This document shows positions 25,205 through 33,653 of a DNA stretch of 64,000 nucleotides, piece by piece (the first letter of the stretch is position 1; each line of letters opens with the position of its first letter). The notes below the pieces were generated by a model, which saw only the letters and a list, made by a program, of their open reading frames with translations, did no database searches and was not told the DNA's origin. The translations under genes and the position numbers were made by a program. The DNA is from Mucilaginibacter sp. (GTDB lineage Bacteria > Bacteroidota > Bacteroidia > Sphingobacteriales > Sphingobacteriaceae): assembly GCA_035492275.1 (NCBI GenBank), contig DATJJI010000163.1, forward strand, positions 3,141-67,140, read 5' to 3'.

Positions 25205-26575
25205 TTATTGAAAAGAGGTGGGCTCTGTTGATGTATACGGTATAGTTCCTTTTATCATTTTACCGCCATCGTTCACCAGCCTCAAATAAAAGTCGGACGA
25301 TACGTGGGTGCCATCGGCATCCAGCGTTAAAAAATATTGCCCGGCCGGTATCATCGACGCGTCCTCAGCGCATTTAAATATCGATGTCGCTTCGTTCAGC
25401 TCATCAAACATGGCCACATACACGCTTCGTACACCCACGTTTTTAAACGTAGCAAACTGCGACCATAAAAAATTACCATGATCGCGCGGGAATTGATTTT
25501 TGGCCGATTTTGGCCCGTTTGTGTTATAGAATGCCGTTCCGGGATAGGCGCATGGCTGATAATCGATACCGTTGGCTGTACAAAAATCATTATCGCCAAC
25601 AACCCATGGTGTATAGTTTCCGTCTACGGCTCTACCCACGGCCCAGCCCGATATCATGTTAAATGCTTTATAGGTATCAGTAAATCCGGCTTGCGAGTCG
25701 CCCGTGCCTGTGCGCCATTGTCCCGGCACCGAACCAATTACATAACATCCCTGGTTTTTAAACCAGTTGATCAGATCAAGCGCCTGCGCCGGAGTTGAAG
25801 GGTGGCTGGCATATCCTAAGCCGTATATAGATACTACAGGCTTGCCATTTTGCTTAGCATAAGCACTTGAGGTTAATAAATTCAGGCTACCGGTTATCGT
25901 GTTGGTCCAGTCGGTCTTTATAGCATCAAGGTTTCCCCAGCCGGAGGCATCGTACATGATATAAAATTTCACGTTATTGTTCTGCGCCGCGCTTTGTACG
26001 CGCATGGCAATGCCATCTCGAAAGGCTTTAATGCTGCTGCCTGGTGTAATTTCATTGCAGAAACGTTGCAGTGCCGCGCAATCAATGCCGTATTGCTGCA
26101 TCCATTTAAAATGCAGGTCAACGGTCGACTGGTCCCAGGCAGAGTACATTTTTGCCGGCTGCCCGTTACCTAAATTTCCGGTAAAACCGGGCTGCGATAC
26201 ACCCGCCTGGTTAAAATTACTGCCCGAGTAGGTTTTAGTGTATTCGCGCGTATCGGGCCACATTTCCAGGTTTTGATGCCCCCATTTATTTTCGGGCGAC
26301 CCATCGCCGGCGGCGGTGAACCATCCCTGGTAGCCTACAACAATCTTACCTACCACATCGCCCACAGGCGATTGCGGAGGTGTTACCGGCGGCGTCACCG
26401 GCTGTGTAGGCGGGTCTACAACAGGCGGCGGTGTGCTTTCTGATTTTTTTGAACAGCCCGAGGCAAAAATGCTAAGAGCAATTAAGGTTGCCGCGCCTAT
26501 AGTTTTTACGGGCTGCAATCGATTGGAAGAATGGCGCTTAGCGCGCACCTGTTCCATGAAATTCATAGAAGTCAT
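25205..26575 (-). CDS. Glycoside hydrolase family 71/99-like lipoprotein
   Basis: Lipobox ASGC, Pro-rich linker, VGYQGWF, HFKWMQQYGID..ALQRF, YVAMFDELNEAT. Start codon uncertain. Confidence 0.8.
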   Translation of the reverse strand: MTSMNFMEQVRAKRHSSNRLQPVKTIGAATLIALSIFASGCSKKSESTPPPVVDPPTQPVTPPVTPPQSPVGDVVGKIVVGYQGWFTAAGDGSPENKWGHQNLEMWPDTREYTKTYSGSNFNQAGVSQPGFTGNLGNGQPAKMYSAWDQSTVDLHFKWMQQYGIDCAALQRFCNEITPGSSIKAFRDGIAMRVQSAAQNNNVKFYIMYDASGWGNLDAIKTDWTNTITGSLNLLTSSAYAKQNGKPVVSIYGLGYASHPSTPAQALDLINWFKNQGCYVIGSVPGQWRTGTGDSQAGFTDTYKAFNMISGWAVGRAVDGNYTPWVVGDNDFCTANGIDYQPCAYPGTAFYNTNGPKSAKNQFPRDHGNFLWSQFATFKNVGVRSVYVAMFDELNEATSIFKCAEDASMIPAGQYFLTLDADGTHVSSDFYLRLVNDGGKMIKGTIPYTSTEPTSFQ

Positions 26576-27027
26576 AAATAGTATTTTAGGGTTGATGTAT
26601 CGGGCAAATTGGTAAAGCCCTTGTTTATAATTACGCAATATTAACAAAAAACTTTATAAGGATAACTTTCTATCGGTCTGCTTTGTTTCAAAATTTGCCC
26701 GTCAGGCAAAAACAGGCTTAACTTTTAGTTGATGATTTGCTCTAAATCGAGTTGCTTAATGACAGTCGATCCAACAAGTTATTAACAATTATTAACAACT
26801 TTTGTTAATAACCTAAACTACTAACTTATTGATTAAAAATAACTTATTTTATGATTTTTTCTGACGGGACTATCCGGCACCCAAAATTGGTGATTAAAAC
26901 CGGCGTCATTGTTTAAAATACTTTTTGGGAGCAAATACTTTTCTAAGAAATTTTTTAACCTATGTAACACTTATACAGAAGATTACGTAAAAAGCCGTAC
27001 TTGTTAATATTGACAAAACGGTAAAGA

Positions 27028-28161
27028 ATGCGAGCGCTAAGATCTTCCCCTAAAACACTGACCATTTGCGGCTTTATGCTGCTTGGTTTGTCTTGCCTTT
27101 CATTTACCGGCAAGCCCGACCCAAAAAAACATTTTAGTTTATTCGGTTTCTTCGCCCTTCCATCTGTAGATACAACAGTGGTTGCCTGCGGTACAAGCAT
27201 TGTGTTAAACACGGTTCCGGTGGCTGGTTATAACAACCCGGTATGGAGCACCGGTGCAACCGGCAATTCAATTACCGTTACATCGCCCGGCGATTATTCG
27301 TGGTACACTACCGGGGCTACCGTAGTAACCAACGGGGATTTCTCTGCATCAATCAGTACCCCGGCTTCGCGCGGGTTTACCAGCGATTATACTTACCTGG
27401 ATACATCAAGCCCCAATGGTGGCTGCTGCGGTATATTAAGCGCAGAGGGTACTTATGTGGTTGGTAAAAACCCACACACCTATCATACCAATTTCGATTC
27501 ATTCGGCGACCATACAACCGGAACCGGTAGAATGCTGATCGTAAATGGCGCGTCGGTGCCCAATGTAACCGTATGGGCACAAACCATCACGGTTATGCCG
27601 AATACCGACTATATCTTTTCGGTTTGGGCTACTTCAGTTAACCCCGTAAGCCCGGCCATATTATCGTTTTCAATTAACGGCACCCAGCAAATCGGCACGG
27701 TTAATCTTTCGCCAACGCTGTCAGATGGCACATGGCAATATTTTACCACCGTATGGAATTCGGGCACTACCAGCGGAGCCGTACCTATCGCGTTGGTAAA
27801 CCAAAATACAGCGGCAAACGGTAACGACTTCGCGGTTGATGACATTGTGTTTGCACCCATTGTGAAGCAAAACATTCATGTGTCATTTAACCCGCTACCT
27901 ATCCTGGCATTGAACGGCCCGCATGAAACTTGCGGAACCTATGACCTGACACAGGCTATTGTTGGCTATGACCCAACTAACTATATCTATTTTTTTAAAG
28001 ACAGCAGCGGCACTATTGTAACCAGCCCGCAGGCTATAACACATAGCGGTGTTTATACCATCACCGAGCAAAGTAAAGCAACCGGCTGCACATCGCTGCC
28101 GCAACAAACAACGATCACAATCGACCCTAATCCGGCTAAACCTAACATCACATCTTTATAA
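27028..28161 (+). CDS. Secreted Ig-like protein with an inserted carbohydrate-binding-type domain; no T9SS CTD
   Basis: Signal peptide, WSTGATGNSITV.SPG.Y, NGDF...DHT.GTGRMLIVNG...NDFAVDDIVF, second Ig-like repeat; ends PNPAKPNITSL. Confidence 0.75.
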   Translation: MRALRSSPKTLTICGFMLLGLSCLSFTGKPDPKKHFSLFGFFALPSVDTTVVACGTSIVLNTVPVAGYNNPVWSTGATGNSITVTSPGDYSWYTTGATVVTNGDFSASISTPASRGFTSDYTYLDTSSPNGGCCGILSAEGTYVVGKNPHTYHTNFDSFGDHTTGTGRMLIVNGASVPNVTVWAQTITVMPNTDYIFSVWATSVNPVSPAILSFSINGTQQIGTVNLSPTLSDGTWQYFTTVWNSGTTSGAVPIALVNQNTAANGNDFAVDDIVFAPIVKQNIHVSFNPLPILALNGPHETCGTYDLTQAIVGYDPTNYIYFFKDSSGTIVTSPQAITHSGVYTITEQSKATGCTSLPQQTTITIDPNPAKPNITSL

Positions 28162-28207
28162 ATTATGTAACAGCAAAGACTATCAAACAAAAAATTATCA
28201 AACAAAC

Positions 28208-28891
28208 ATGAAAAGCAAATTATTTACTCCGATTCTGATCTTACTGATGGCCTTCACTACAGGAGCCGCGTTTGCCCAGGTTACAGCAGGCCCAAGCGAT
28301 GCCACCACAGCGCCGCCGGCTACAACTGCGGGCGCTGACAAGATCTTATGTTCTGGCTCAACCATCACCTTAACCGGCCCGCAGGATGCCGGAGGTGTTG
28401 ATTATACCAAATACCACTGGTATAAAATTGACGCGGGCGGTAACAAGCAGGAGGCGACCACAACAGGCCGCACCTATACCGAAACCGCTACTACAGCAGG
28501 TTATTATAATTATCAGGTGGTTACCGAGAATGCGACAGGCTGTACCTCGCCAATATCTGATGTGTATAAAATATTTGTATTGCCGCCATTAACAGTTTCT
28601 ATAACTACGCCAACCAGCACTATGTGCGCTATGGCTACCAATAGCAGTCTGTTAACGGCTAACGTAACTCCTTCAACAGGCTATACGTTCAATTATCAGT
28701 GGACAAGGAATGGTGTAGCCATACCGGGTGCAACATCAAGTACATACGATGTAACCGGCGAAACTACAGCAGGAACAGTAACCTTTGGCGTAAATGTGAG
28801 CTATACCCTTAACTCAACATGCCCGGCTTCGGCGACTAAAGATCTTATCCTGACCCCAATACCGGGCAAACCAATGATAACAGCTAATTAA
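28208..28891 (+). CDS. Secreted protein with two Ig-like repeats; no T9SS CTD
   Basis: ATG at 28208, signal peptide MKSKLF...AFAQ, LCSGSTITL..Y.W, YQWTRNG.AIPGATSSTY; ends PIPGKPMITAN. Confidence 0.8.
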   Translation: MKSKLFTPILILLMAFTTGAAFAQVTAGPSDATTAPPATTAGADKILCSGSTITLTGPQDAGGVDYTKYHWYKIDAGGNKQEATTTGRTYTETATTAGYYNYQVVTENATGCTSPISDVYKIFVLPPLTVSITTPTSTMCAMATNSSLLTANVTPSTGYTFNYQWTRNGVAIPGATSSTYDVTGETTAGTVTFGVNVSYTLNSTCPASATKDLILTPIPGKPMITAN

Positions 28892-28935
28892 TTGAATTTG
28901 AAACGCACTAAAAAGCAACCGCAGGAAAACGCTAA

Positions 28936-29898
28936 ATGAAGCTTCTGTATAAAATAATAGTTATTTGCTTATTGTTGACTGGTATAGGTGCAACAACCTT
29001 AAAGGCTATGGCCGGCGAGGTAACCTATACCATCAACCAGGGGCAAACTATTACTTTACACGGAAGCACTGCTAATGCCTCGGCTTACCAATGGTTTAAA
29101 GACGGTATAAGTATAAGCGGCGCCGTATTGAAAGATTACAAGGCAAGTGAAGCGGGAGAATACACCGTGGTGGCCTTTAACAGCGAAGGCTGCCCATCGG
29201 TACAGTCTGACCCGATACGTATTATCATTAATCCGGTTATCCCGGTTAAGCCTGATACGGTTGTTGATTTGCAGGTTACTATACAGTCAACCAATATACA
29301 CGCGGCACCAGGCGACAACTTTACCTATATATTAACTGCCAACAATAACAGTGTAATAAACGGAACACATGTACAAATAAAATACACTGTTCCGCCAAAC
29401 CTGGTGTACGTGCCGCAACCTGCTGATAAGGGAACAGTGGTTTACGATAGCAACACCCACACCATAACCTGGAGCATTGATCGCTTAAAGGAAAATGACC
29501 CTATACAATTGGTGGTTGGTGTAAAGGTTTTAGCACCCGGCGTTATACAAAGTGTGGTTGATATTAAGGGCAAAGAGATCGACCCGATATTGGCGAACAA
29601 TATTGACCAAACCGTTCAGCAGGTTTACCCGCTGGTGGTGCCCAATGTGTTTACGCCTAACGGCGATGGCAAGAATGATACGTTCACCATCCCGGGGCTG
29701 GATACTTACTCTGACAATGAGATCGTCATCATCAACAGGTGGGGCAATACTGTATATCAAAAAACAAATTATAAAAACGACTGGGACGGCAGCGGCCTGG
29801 TTGAGGGTACCTATTTCTATCTTCTTAGAGCGAAGAATAAGGCAGGTGTATGGGATGTTTATAAAGGTTATTTAACCTTACTAAGAACGAAAGTATAA
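28936..29898 (+). CDS. T9SS type-B CTD (gliding motility-associated C-terminal domain) protein with Ig-like and DUF11 domains
   Basis: YQWFKDG.SISGA, DLQVT...GDNFTY.LTA.N...D...ANN, then [20 protein letters not shown]....Y.N.WDG...GTYFY. Confidence 0.92.
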
Positions 29899-29900
29899 AG

Positions 29901-30899
29901 ATGATCAGAAAACTAATATTTCTTTTTGTTTTAACATTGGGTTGCCTTACAGCCTGGGCACAGCAGGATGCGCAGTTTAGCCAGTATATTTTTAATGGCC
30001 TGTACATTAATCCTGCTTATGCCGGTTATAAAAGCGATTTGAATATTAACAGCTTTTACCGCTCGCAGTGGACCGGCATGACCGGCGCGCCTACCACGGT
30101 TTCGCTGGCAGCCGATGAATCGTTTGCGCATGATAATGTGGGTTTGGGTATCTTATTTCAGCATGACCAGATAGGTGCGCAAAGCAATGTTGCCATGTAT
30201 ACCAACTATGCCTATCGTTTACAAATTGGCGAAGATGAAGATTCAAGGCTGGCCTTTGGCGTTGGCCTGGGCTTTATACAAAGCGGTATTGACGGCAATA
30301 AGCTGAACCCGGTTCAAGCCGGCGATGATTATATACCTAACGGCACCCATAGCTTCCTTTCGGCTGATGCGCGCCTGGGCTTTTTATACACTAATAACAG
30401 CTACTTTATCGGCGCTTCGGTTGATAACCTGCTGCCGCAATATATGCACAGCTCGCAAACATTAGACGCGCTGGGCGTACCGGTACCCAAACCGCACGAG
30501 TACTTTACCATGGGTGCCTTGTTTGATGTAAATGACGAAACCAAATTCAAGCCATCCATATTGATCAAAGACACGCCTACGGCGCCAACCAGCATGGATA
30601 TTAACGCTTTTATGCTGATGAATGATAAGTTATGGCTGGGTGCTACTTATCGCACCGCCATTTCGCTTTACAACAAACCCAACCTGCAGAAGGATCTGCC
30701 TACAGCGAGTGCAGCGGTGGCTATCGTAGAGTTTTTCCCGACCGAGACCCTGCGCATAGGTTATGCCTTCGATTACTCGCTGAACAAGATAGGTACCTAT
30801 GGCTATGGCTCGCACGAGTTATCTATCGGTATCCTGCTAAAAAACAGCAAAAGCTCACGCTCGCGCTTTAACGACCCAACCCGTAAGTGTTATTTTTAA
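29901..30899 (+). CDS. T9SS membrane protein, PorP/SprF family
   Basis: AQQDAQFSQY.FN.LYINPAYAG, YRSQWTG..GAPTT, IGYAFDY, GSHELSIG. Confidence 0.95.
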   Translation: MIRKLIFLFVLTLGCLTAWAQQDAQFSQYIFNGLYINPAYAGYKSDLNINSFYRSQWTGMTGAPTTVSLAADESFAHDNVGLGILFQHDQIGAQSNVAMYTNYAYRLQIGEDEDSRLAFGVGLGFIQSGIDGNKLNPVQAGDDYIPNGTHSFLSADARLGFLYTNNSYFIGASVDNLLPQYMHSSQTLDALGVPVPKPHEYFTMGALFDVNDETKFKPSILIKDTPTAPTSMDINAFMLMNDKLWLGATYRTAISLYNKPNLQKDLPTASAAVAIVEFFPTETLRIGYAFDYSLNKIGTYGYGSHELSIGILLKNSKSSRSRFNDPTRKCYF

Positions 30900-32141: not shown

Positions 32142-33653
32142 TTAAAAACTAACGCGGTTAAAGTAATTCACAGCGCATGATCCGGATACCGATGTTATCC
32201 TAACAGTGTGCAGACTGTTAGCCGAGAAGGTTTGTGTACCCACATCAATAGTTGAATATACACCGTTACCGGTAATAGGCAGCGTAACCGTTGGCAGGTC
32301 AACCCCATCAACAGAGAACTTGATTGATGCCGCCTGGTTTGATGAATAGCGCAACTGGAACTTGGTATGCGCCAGCAATGGCAATTCTTTCCACTCCAGC
32401 CATTCGCCGGCCTGGAACGCGGTTACGTGCCAGCCGCCGCCGGTATCGCCTGTTTTAACAATATCAATATCGCCGGCCCTGAAGGTACCACCGCTGTTGC
32501 CTGCTGTTACATCATGAAAACTGTCGCAACCCTCGGCTTCAACCTTTAGGGTTGGGGCGTAGGCTTTGCTGGTAAAGCGGCGCAATATATTTATCCTTTG
32601 GTTCGGATAATCGTAATAGGTTACGTCGCTGCTGCGCCACATGGCCGCGGTTTCTGAGGCATCGGTAAAGCCTTCGCACAAAGTTACCAGGGTGCCCGCG
32701 TTAACCGTATTGGTTAAGCCCGTGGTTAACAGCTGGCCGTGGTTAGGGTCAAGGAAGCTGCCATTGCCTGCGGTTTGGAAACTTGGTACTGCTACACCTG
32801 CATTAACGCTATTAAATGTTCTGAAAGAATACGATGATGGCGGAACGAACCAATTATGTACCGCGTCGACAACCGCAGGGTCATTACAGGTTGGGTCCTG
32901 GTTAAGCCATGATTGATCAACGATAAGGAACGGGTTAAAGCCAAAGGTCGACTGGCACTGGGTGCGTATGTACTGCGCAATTTTTTTAAGGTTGCCTGAT
33001 TGGTTGGTGCAAAATGGTGAGTTTACGCTCCAGAAAAATATTACCGGGCGGTTGCTCAGTTTAAACCGTTTAGCATCGGGCACATTCTGGAAACACAATT
33101 TAATGTTGTCATCCCATATGTATTTATAGTTGGCTGTGTTTCCGCAATCAAATGGTGGGTTGTAGCCATAGCCACTGCCATTGTCCTTGTTTCGATTAGC
33201 GGTCCATGAAGCAGGAATGTCATCAAATATAGCCACCTTGAACGCGTTGCTCAAGCCGCGACGGTCCATAGCGGCGCATAAGTTTGCCAGTTTGTTAGGG
33301 TCGCCGGCATCAATTGTTGGGTAATTGGCTAAAAAGCCGCGGTCAATAGGCGCTATGTAATCAACACCGCTGTAAGCCACTTCTTCTACCATGTTATCCC
33401 ACCAGTCGGCTTCGGTAGTGTTTGACAGGAAAATAGATTGATTGTAAGGGTATTGCATACCGCCCGCACGTTCGGCACTGTTATAACAAAGCGTTACGCC
33501 CAAATAATTGGGATTGGCTGCGGGTAAAGCGCCGGTAGTTTTACCATCAGCATTAATTGCACCGGTAGCCCCCTCCTGTGTAATTTCTTTCTTGCTACAG
33601 CCCACAATAAGGGCCAGTACCAATACTGGTAATAGTAATTTAATCCTTCTCAT
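32142..33653 (-). CDS. DUF5010-like glycoside-hydrolase lipoprotein with a C-terminal CBM6-like module
   Basis: Lipobox VGCS, DWWDNMVEE, YIWDDN, EGFTD..E, EAEGCD..HD...GN.GG.FR..D.DI, AGEWLEW. Confidence 0.7.
   Translation of the reverse strand: MRRIKLLLPVLVLALIVGCSKKEITQEGATGAINADGKTTGALPAANPNYLGVTLCYNSAERAGGMQYPYNQSIFLSNTTEADWWDNMVEEVAYSGVDYIAPIDRGFLANYPTIDAGDPNKLANLCAAMDRRGLSNAFKVAIFDDIPASWTANRNKDNGSGYGYNPPFDCGNTANYKYIWDDNIKLCFQNVPDAKRFKLSNRPVIFFWSVNSPFCTNQSGNLKKIAQYIRTQCQSTFGFNPFLIVDQSWLNQDPTCNDPAVVDAVHNWFVPPSSYSFRTFNSVNAGVAVPSFQTAGNGSFLDPNHGQLLTTGLTNTVNAGTLVTLCEGFTDASETAAMWRSSDVTYYDYPNQRINILRRFTSKAYAPTLKVEAEGCDSFHDVTAGNSGGTFRAGDIDIVKTGDTGGGWHVTAFQAGEWLEWKELPLLAHTKFQLRYSSNQAASIKFSVDGVDLPTVTLPITGNGVYSTIDVGTQTFSANSLHTVRITSVSGSCAVNYFNRVSF

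Follow-up and report, generated by a model that had tools for sequence, protein, structure and literature searches.

A Mucilaginibacter operon predicted to encode a disulfide-locked, strand-donating fibre anchored by type 9 secretion

We examined four open reading frames (ORFs), g1 to g4, that follow one another on the plus strand (27028..30899) of a 64,000-nucleotide stretch of Mucilaginibacter sp. DNA (assembly GCA_035492275.1, contig DATJJI010000163.1, positions 3,141 to 67,140; hereafter the window, in whose numbering coordinates are given). This operon probably specifies a thin adhesive fibre, in which many copies of a shaft subunit would be joined by strand donation and disulfide bonds, one exchangeable tip would sit at the end, and an anchor bearing a type 9 secretion system (T9SS) C-terminal sorting domain (CTD) would see to export and holding. 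Joining by C-terminal strand donation, head to tail, had been proposed in a first-pass annotation of the window, and it is favoured by a model of the shaft homodimer, by a natural shaft-anchor fusion and its predicted fold, by gene order among relatives and by the strength of the shaft start site. The predicted covalent disulfide lock is an addition to that strand-only proposal. The system is real and conserved and most likely represents a new kind of pilus built from known parts.

Domain organization of the four genes

The predicted tip, encoded by g1 (27028..28161; 377 residues), consists of a signal peptide, an immunoglobulin-like (Ig) domain with a lectin-like insert, a second Ig domain and a donor tail; it has no CTD and would offer a donor end only. 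The product of g2 (28208..28891; 227 residues) is the predicted shaft subunit, with two Ig domains, a head that lacks strand A and would act as acceptor, and a tail that would serve as strand A for a neighbor. In the predicted anchor, encoded by g3 (28936..29898; 320 residues), a signal peptide precedes an Ig domain without strand A, a DUF11 domain (29266-29610) and a type B CTD (29635-29880), giving an acceptor end only. The last gene, g4 (29901..30899; 332 residues), encodes an outer-membrane shuttle of the PorP/SprF family for type B CTDs. Family searches placed g3 and g4 as the first-pass annotation had done: the CTD of g3 matched TIGR04131 (CHU_C) with 55.6 bits against a cut-off of 35 and also PF13585, and g4 matched TIGR03519 with 250.9 bits against a cut-off of 90.55 and also PF11751. 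The same searches found no CTD family match in g1 or g2, and g2 matched Ig_7/PKD families in Pfam.

Signal peptides were inferred from hydrophobic cores and from a helix at residues 6-23 of the g2 model, with no predictor used, and they bear out the description of four co-oriented, closely spaced genes that each carry their own signal. The start of g2 was taken as the ATG at 28208; the ORF list begins at an upstream GTG. The mature shaft begins near Gln24 and its first cysteine is residue 48, so that there is no cysteine at the signal cleavage site. The source genome, which is 63% complete, encodes SprA. SprA scored above cut-off in five of five genomes and GldN in four of the five, with a partial match in the source genome.

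The C-terminal tail and the missing first strand

The proteins encoded by g1 and g2 end in almost the same tail (residues 367-377 of g1, 28126..28158; residues 217-227 of g2, 28856..28888). Among 756 candidates we found 127 g2 homologues, nearly all of them 224-253 residues long with this tail at the end, and Pro222 and Ile224 of g2 are invariant in 109 aligned homologues. When a tail profile built from relatives was run against 2575 ORF ends of the source genome, it returned g2 (E 3e-17) and g1 (E 5e-12), the next match having an E value of 0.04. As the profile picks only g1 and g2 genome-wide and Pro222 and Ile224 are invariant, the likeness of the two CTD-less tails, read correctly at first pass, is not a matter of chance. 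The tail corresponds exactly to the opening of a following repeat, and giant adhesins carry this motif internally.

An AlphaFold2 model of g2 (predicted local distance difference test score, pLDDT, 92.5) comprises two Ig domains. Domain 2 is modelled with strand A at residues 129-133 and A' at 138-140; domain 1 opens at A' (45-47), strand A being missing. Residues 26-43 form no strand in the model and the tail, residues 217-227, is unpaired. The model thus agrees with the earlier view that the chain stops just after the first strand of an absent domain, and it speaks against the caveat then attached to it, namely that the segment APPATTAGAD near the N-terminus of g2 might supply its own first strand, since no strand is formed there. 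The anchor was likewise rightly described as lacking a first strand in its mature Ig head, as in the 71 relatives with a readable head it opens with A', preceded by a brief variable segment.

Further features of the chain ends were observed. The N-terminal stretch Gly28-Pro37 of the mature shaft (28283-28336) is conserved and covaries with Lys73; several genera lack it, and instead of forming a strand it may latch onto the head domain. In some tips of other genera the tail ends with a conserved Ser-Gln-Tyr extension. An isopeptide link via a conserved terminal Asn was considered and dropped, because this Asn is not conserved family-wide (46%).

A predicted disulfide across the subunit joint

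Within the shaft, Cys48 (28349..28351) and Cys205 (28820-28822) are predicted to form an intramolecular disulfide. In a set of 180 distinct shafts these residues are the second-highest covarying pair (z 7.1); both are present in 168, neither is present in 11, and a single shaft is discordant. Cys112 (28541..28543), located in the F-G loop of the head domain and the predicted acceptor cysteine, and Cys140 (28625..28627), located in the A' strand of domain 2 and the predicted donor cysteine, are found in 180 of 180. Ig topology puts the A' strand at a domain's C-terminal end and the F-G loop at its N-terminal end; accordingly, Cys48-Cys205 would bridge the two domains, and Cys112 and Cys140 would lie at opposite ends of the rod. 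Many shafts from other genera are longer (up to 365 residues) and have two cysteines only, the central pair (L155-L166, L179, L183, L187, L188).

Covalent repeats offer a test of register. Among 259 long proteins, 11 show mixed cysteine use and yield 144 repeat pairs, in which the A' cysteine of repeat n and the F-G cysteine of repeat n+1 agree in 129 cases (odds ratio 93), compared to 98 and 106 of 144 for other registers (odds ratios 3.4 and 6.1). For the giant Aureispira adhesin GhpA, a cryo-EM study reports disulfides that link nearby Ig domains, as in Cys2988-Cys3140, 152 residues apart (bioRxiv 10.1101/2024.01.29.577165). The spacing of Cys48 and Cys205 is 157. Judging from these sequence patterns, Cys112 and Cys140 appear to correspond to one half each of the disulfide that links domains in giant T9SS adhesins.

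The cysteines of the partner subunits fit such a division. In a 71-row alignment of anchors the F-G cysteine of the head is invariant, and the number of cysteines in the mature protein is odd in 69 of the 71; in g3 itself, Cys86 (29191..29193) is the only one. Tips carry an A' cysteine in their last domain that is invariant in 19 aligned rows and corresponds to Cys302 of g1 (27931..27933). By this pattern, only the shaft has both kinds of end; the tip is limited to a donor end and the anchor to an acceptor end. The predicted pairings are tip Cys302 with shaft Cys112 and shaft Cys140 with anchor Cys86. As the donated strand is short, the inter-subunit disulfide is probably the main lock.

Modelled self-association of the shaft and a natural fusion

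The first-pass annotation had named a model of paired g2 chains as one way to check its proposal. We modelled two copies of g2 residues 24-227, using our own alignment and three controls. The homodimer scored 0.51 and the best of the three controls 0.00; among proteins of solved structure, 20 of 30 pairs and 1 of 23 single chains attain the mark applied, a calibration that is only roughly valid with our own alignment. Contacts agreed between runs to at least 96% and pLDDT was 91. In the model, the interface is one-way, with residues 138-142 and 216-227 of one chain lying on residues 44-45, 53-58, 60, 66, 102-108, 110-118, 120 and 122 of its partner, so that the C-terminal tail would complete the partner's N-terminal Ig head. 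Ile224 is placed among residues 55-57, 102-104 and 117-120, and Cys140 touches the partner's Cys112 with an expected error of 3.0 Å. These contacts had been predicted beforehand from covariation and were then seen in the model. Both outer ends are left free and the arrangement is open-ended, as needed by a polymer. The model therefore supports self-binding of the shaft.

A fusion protein from a relative, P0253 (783 residues; L118:400-2751), contains a whole shaft with its tail, seven linker residues, an anchor-type head, IPT repeats and a type A CTD, and is the sole shaft-anchor fusion among the 150 and 120 matches listed. An alignment of the whole fusion slid the anchor heads onto the wrong repeat; the fold considered here was that of the tail and the third domain only, with no alignment rows over the tail. 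In this fold, the Ile-Thr-Ala of the tail is predicted to form a strand on the head domain, and the linker is disordered (pLDDT <50). As P0253 carries a type A CTD of its own, a shaft can be T9SS cargo. In P0253 the head cysteine (Cys114) also stays free and the upstream position holds no tip gene, so that the protein may serve as an alternative anchor for donors in trans. A second candidate fusion, L119, turned out to be a normal four-gene operon.

Conservation of the operon among relatives

To follow the operon from the shaft side, 84 loci were fetched, of which five were dropped (two duplicates and three that are not shaft genes). In the remaining 79, an anchor gene lies downstream in 75 and a PorP gene in 75. 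A tail-bearing gene stands directly upstream of the shaft gene in 56 (52 by pattern and 4 by eye) and behind PorP in 3; 13 fully flanked loci have no adjacent one, 4 loci run into a contig edge, 1 locus is broken and 2 consist of lone shaft-like genes. An anchor-side set comprised 40 short-frame matches, all new with respect to the shaft-side loci. Upstream sequence was present for 39, and 38 of these have a tailed shaft gene, with a further gene directly upstream in 37 (tails detected by pattern in 33 and by eye in 37). The central cysteine pair is found at matching spacing in 38 of 38 anchor-side shafts. Three separate genes are present in 75/79 and 38/39 loci, respectively, and the shaft keeps its length and its tail in at least 10 genera.

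The Ig-DUF11 part of the anchor found matches in 124 of 401 genomes of the family and in 17 of 35 genera, some of them within giant proteins. Outside the family, shaft and anchor queries found matches in 27 of 401 and 10 of 301 genomes, respectively, only in frames of at least 634 residues, and three such loci that were inspected encode ordinary multi-domain proteins. The named g2 homologues belong to Mucilaginibacter, and the homologue group falls within the Sphingobacteriaceae.

Proteins in the tip slot range from about 270 to 1318 residues; their N-terminal parts and last domains are unrelated, and the tail is kept in all of them. Tips are exchangeable and sometimes absent. Extra tips on the opposite strand or unlinked were seen in L070 and L143. 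In L054 and L057, a mini-tip of 74-75 residues (signal, last strands and tail) and a truncated anchor of 84-90 residues stand beside full-length copies; these mini-genes could be remnants or minimal chain stoppers, and the full tips there have extra Ig repeats (765 and 1026 residues). Beyond tip, shaft, anchor and PorP, no gene recurs in the 79 and 40 loci: chaperone or usher genes were not recurrent there (no genome-wide usher search was made), and no conserved exporter gene other than PorP was present in the loci read.

The 13 fully flanked loci without an adjacent tip keep Cys112. In five tip-less genomes we searched for orphan tips with a 40-position tail profile, which could miss a divergent tail, and the shaft's own tail was the top match in four; other matches were mostly frames of more than 600 residues, and one that was inspected (L129) is internal to a CTD-bearing adhesin. 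Because tip-less loci retain Cys112 and no other tail-bearing protein was found in these five genomes, another shaft is the only evident partner.

Other arrangements were also encountered. L100 and L103 each contain two complete tandem operons with their own shaft, anchor and PorP genes; tails differ between the two, and the second tip is truncated or missing, which suggests two non-mixing fibres per cell. A lone shaft homologue of 199 residues (L150:6638-7237, minus strand) comes from a genome whose shaft-anchor-PorP operon lies on a different contig. At L072:6983-7684, a shaft homologue lacks an anchor and its tail is shortened; as read from the sequences, it lies in a prophage-like stretch, its neighbors being a lysozyme-like ORF and a protein with collagen-like repeats. 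An extra PorP-like gene and/or a gene for a protein of about 660 residues that reads as OmpA/PorE-like precedes the operon in L053, L091, L094 and L153, hinting at a static anchor tethered to the cell wall, as proposed for PorE-linked cargos.

Translation signals of the shaft gene

The translation start region of g2 (28178..28207) is A-rich, G-free and unstructured, and its A content is at the 99th percentile when set against 622 signal-peptide-like genes from the source genome. Using the best ATG per gene as picked by script, and bearing in mind that kin are not independent, the shaft start region is more A-rich than that of the tip in 37 of 39 loci, of the anchor in 54 of 60 and of PorP in 46 of 67. 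In Flavobacterium, translation starts more readily where adenines lie upstream and structure is weak (PMC6847099). We therefore predict from sequence that the shaft has the strongest translation start of the operon.

A proposed assembly path

In the path that we propose, the subunits would cross the inner membrane by the Sec pathway, after which tails would dock into heads and cysteines would be oxidized in the periplasm, giving a tip-(shaft)n-anchor chain. The junction would be the inter-repeat junction of SprB and GhpA, cut between the A and A' strands, and since the product copies that joint, the SprA translocon could treat the chain as one long covalent cargo. The CTD would dock on the PorP/SprF shuttle and the chain would follow it outwards, with the distal end emerging last. 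On leaving the translocon, type B cargos stay bound to their carrier, and this carrier holds them at the surface (PMC10994853; PMC9143113). As the free acceptor end would exit last, the tip would be added last and would stop growth; with a donor end only on the tip and an acceptor end only on the anchor, both would act as chain stoppers. Fibre length would then be set by the ratio of shafts to stoppers, with the start sites biasing this ratio towards the shaft, and the tip would bind a glycan or a surface, the function probably being adhesion. Inferences within this path include passage out behind a single CTD, contacts in trans between tip and shaft and between shaft and anchor, and fibre length.

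Polymer or fixed complex

Several observations weigh against a polymeric fibre exported in this manner. Our literature search found no case of the T9SS carrying tag-less subunits on a tagged one. PorP directly follows the anchor in only 19 of the 40 anchor-selected loci. The co-occurrence of tail homologues with CTD and PorP genes expected at first pass holds on the shaft side, and so does the view of g4 as a shuttle of the kind that type B cargos need, but an adjacent PorP gene is not required; orphan type B cargos with an unlinked shuttle are known (PMC12618676). The cysteine parity of whole tips is mixed (32 odd and 22 even among 54). The homodimer may have passed partly through model memory, because its interface copies the covalent tandem-Ig junction, and its calibration is only rough with our own alignment. 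P0253 comes from one contig of one soil sample, at a depth of 8.5, and is for this reason a single witness; in its fold, three residues of the donated strand are formed as strand. The tail residue Lys221 and Asp118 of the shaft head covary with a z of 5.5, yet a test on independent pairs is not significant, the supported pairs being too few (five starred pairs, 2.5 the same way and 0.1 opposite). Finally, a codon index that compares codons for Phe, Tyr, Ile and Asn ending in C with those ending in U gave no sign of high shaft expression, with the shaft above the anchor in 25 of 74 loci, although the single reference gene lies at the genome mean and the index is thus uninformative.

The first-pass annotation had left two alternatives side by side, a pilus and piggy-back secretion. 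If the latter were a fixed 1:1:1 complex, the operon would encode a split adhesin in which the shaft tail fits the anchor head only and the tip tail the shaft head only, forming a short piggy-back assembly. We hold this to be unlikely, albeit the most serious competitor: tip and shaft tails do differ consistently within loci, the sole fusion found joins a shaft to an anchor, an uncontrolled periplasmic polymer could be harmful with no chaperone gene in the locus, and the codon index does not favour the shaft. However, the shaft binds itself head-to-tail in the model, the 13 loci without an adjacent tip retain Cys112, and the shaft start site far exceeds that of the tip and that of the anchor in predicted strength, which together lead us to prefer the polymer over the simple piggy-back complex. 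Moreover, Lys221 tracks the shaft's own Asp118 best, with concordance in 69 of 76 loci, compared to 56 of 70 for the equivalent residue of the anchor and 33 of 50 for the tip tail against Asp118.

Less likely again, though worth setting out, is a polymer that leaves the cell other than behind a CTD, by leakage, in vesicles or through some unknown exporter, with assembly outside on a displayed anchor, or that stays behind as a periplasmic chain. Such a route would sit well with the lack of a precedent in the literature searched for passengers through SprA, with two shaft-like genes without an adjacent anchor (L072 and L106), and with type V pilins, which reach the surface without the T9SS, only the accessory protein Mfa5 using it (PMC8512630). 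It sits poorly with the loci, where no other exporter gene is conserved, with a shaft that has no lipidation cysteine at its signal cleavage site (the first being Cys48), with disulfide formation, which is periplasmic, and with P0253, whose own type A CTD indicates that a shaft can travel by the T9SS. That the genes are fragments of a decaying giant adhesin, their tails mere leftovers of a stop-cut repeat without action in trans, is highly improbable and was rightly discounted at first pass: the tail is the exact start of a next repeat, the motif is internal in giant adhesins and L054 and L057 hold short degenerate duplicates, but a signal and a start site belong to every gene, at least 10 genera preserve the length and tail of the shaft, unrelated tips all end in the tail even when behind PorP or unlinked, and the orphan cysteines are invariant, so that this explanation is largely refuted.

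Relation to known surface fibres

The polymeric fibre that we favour would work like donor-strand pili, while being neither a chaperone-usher pilus, nor a type V pilus, nor a single-chain adhesin. Close kin in domain type are the giant T9SS adhesins, GhpA and SprB of Flavobacterium johnsoniae. GhpA fragments gave the highest query-normalized template modelling (TM) scores for g2, up to 0.57, among the Foldseek matches listed. The operon shares with these adhesins the kind of Ig repeat, the spacing of the inter-domain disulfide, tandem Ig repeats with disulfides from A' of one repeat to the F-G loop of the next, and a C-terminal T9SS sorting domain; in addition, a relative encodes a single lectin-Ig-CTD chain with a domain that, by reading and not by alignment, resembles the insert of g1. 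The giant adhesins are, however, single polypeptides of about 6000 residues (GhpA forming a side-by-side heptamer), whereas here tip, repeatable shaft and anchor have separate genes, and the prediction is that strand and disulfide pass from one molecule to the next.

Chaperone-usher pili likewise polymerize by donor-strand complementation of an Ig fold, as modelled here, and with other fibres that use an N-terminal donor strand (type 1, CupE, TasA, TLP-1) they share the logic of tip, shaft and terminator. In chaperone-usher pili the donor extension replaces strand G. In our model, by contrast, the donor is C-terminal (216-227) and would replace strand A, while the N-terminal residues 26-43 are strandless and outside the interface; there is also no conserved chaperone or usher gene in the locus, and a disulfide lock and a T9SS anchor are predicted. 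In the fibres with an N-terminal donor strand, an incomplete Ig fold is completed by a strand of the neighbor (PMC11494351). The archaeal thread Saci_0406, also a donor-strand filament, adds a covalent bond that joins its subunits, and its operon includes a cap gene of low expression (PMC9715654), features that recall the present system. The thread differs in its N-terminal donor, in an isopeptide bond from subunit n to n+2, and in having no outer membrane and no T9SS. AbpX was considered as a parallel with a C-terminal donor strand and set aside, its donor strand being engineered.

Type V pili of Bacteroidia (FimA, Mfa1) come from the same phylum and combine a C-terminal donor strand, here predicted by modelling, with tip and anchor subunits; their pilins are protease-matured lipoprotein precursors of another fold. 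The shaft described here has no lipobox cysteine and matches Ig/PKD proteins, and its base would be a type B CTD on PorP/SprF. None of the fold and sequence matches listed for g2, which are Ig/PKD proteins, is a type V pilin, although an unlisted family is still possible. By family search, g3 and g4 form a pair of the kind known from PG1035-PorP-PorE and SprB-SprF, for which anchorage of the type B cargo on its shuttle has been proposed (PMC9143113). Unlike known type B cargos, which bear functional domains of their own, the anchor would be a small docking base for tag-less partners. No T9SS-anchored, C-terminal-strand, disulfide-linked pilus and no mention of this operon were found in our literature search, most subscription papers and supplements lying outside its scope.

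The tip insert and neighboring features

The lectin-like insert of g1 (about residues 97-278; 27316..27861) resembles galactose-binding and DUF642 domains. Its match to CBM_4_9 (E 0.002) is below cut-off; its structural look-alikes are DUF642 and galactose-binding-like domains (0.90-0.93, with TM-scores of 0.84-0.86 to domains of CTD-bearing Bacteroidota proteins), and a PDB sequence search with g1 returned nothing. Of the earlier description of g1 as a tip lectin, the tip position is thus supported, and the lectin label is only a lead. Fold searches with g2 gave general Ig/PKD matches, the best with a Z-score of 10.7. Near the operon, a protein with DUF5010 and CBM35/CBM6 domains is encoded on the minus strand (32142-33653), and a similar-looking ORF (25205-26647) has no good Pfam match. 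Promoter and terminator scans of the operon gave results at chance level.

Implications

Taken as a whole, and somewhat less firmly than for the fibre itself, we lean towards a new pilus class, in which a giant T9SS adhesin has been split into parts that assemble with no chaperone, usher or sortase by a C-terminal A-strand swap and a disulfide, reach a length set by subunit ratio, and are threaded through SprA on one CTD with the tip last. As part of that joint reading, and with the same reserve, we consider such a system to be common in Mucilaginibacter and related genera. Its two-domain monomer with self-locking ends would be an obvious modular display scaffold. If the reading is true, the pilus class would have a different joint, a C-terminal A-strand swap locked by a disulfide; the T9SS would export tag-less proteins as passengers of a tagged one, and one class of Bacteroidota surface proteins would be overlooked wherever secretomes are predicted from CTDs. 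The system would also provide an evolutionary link between giant repeat adhesins and pili, and root and soil Bacteroidota could vary the tip of an adhesin without re-encoding a stalk of 6000 residues.

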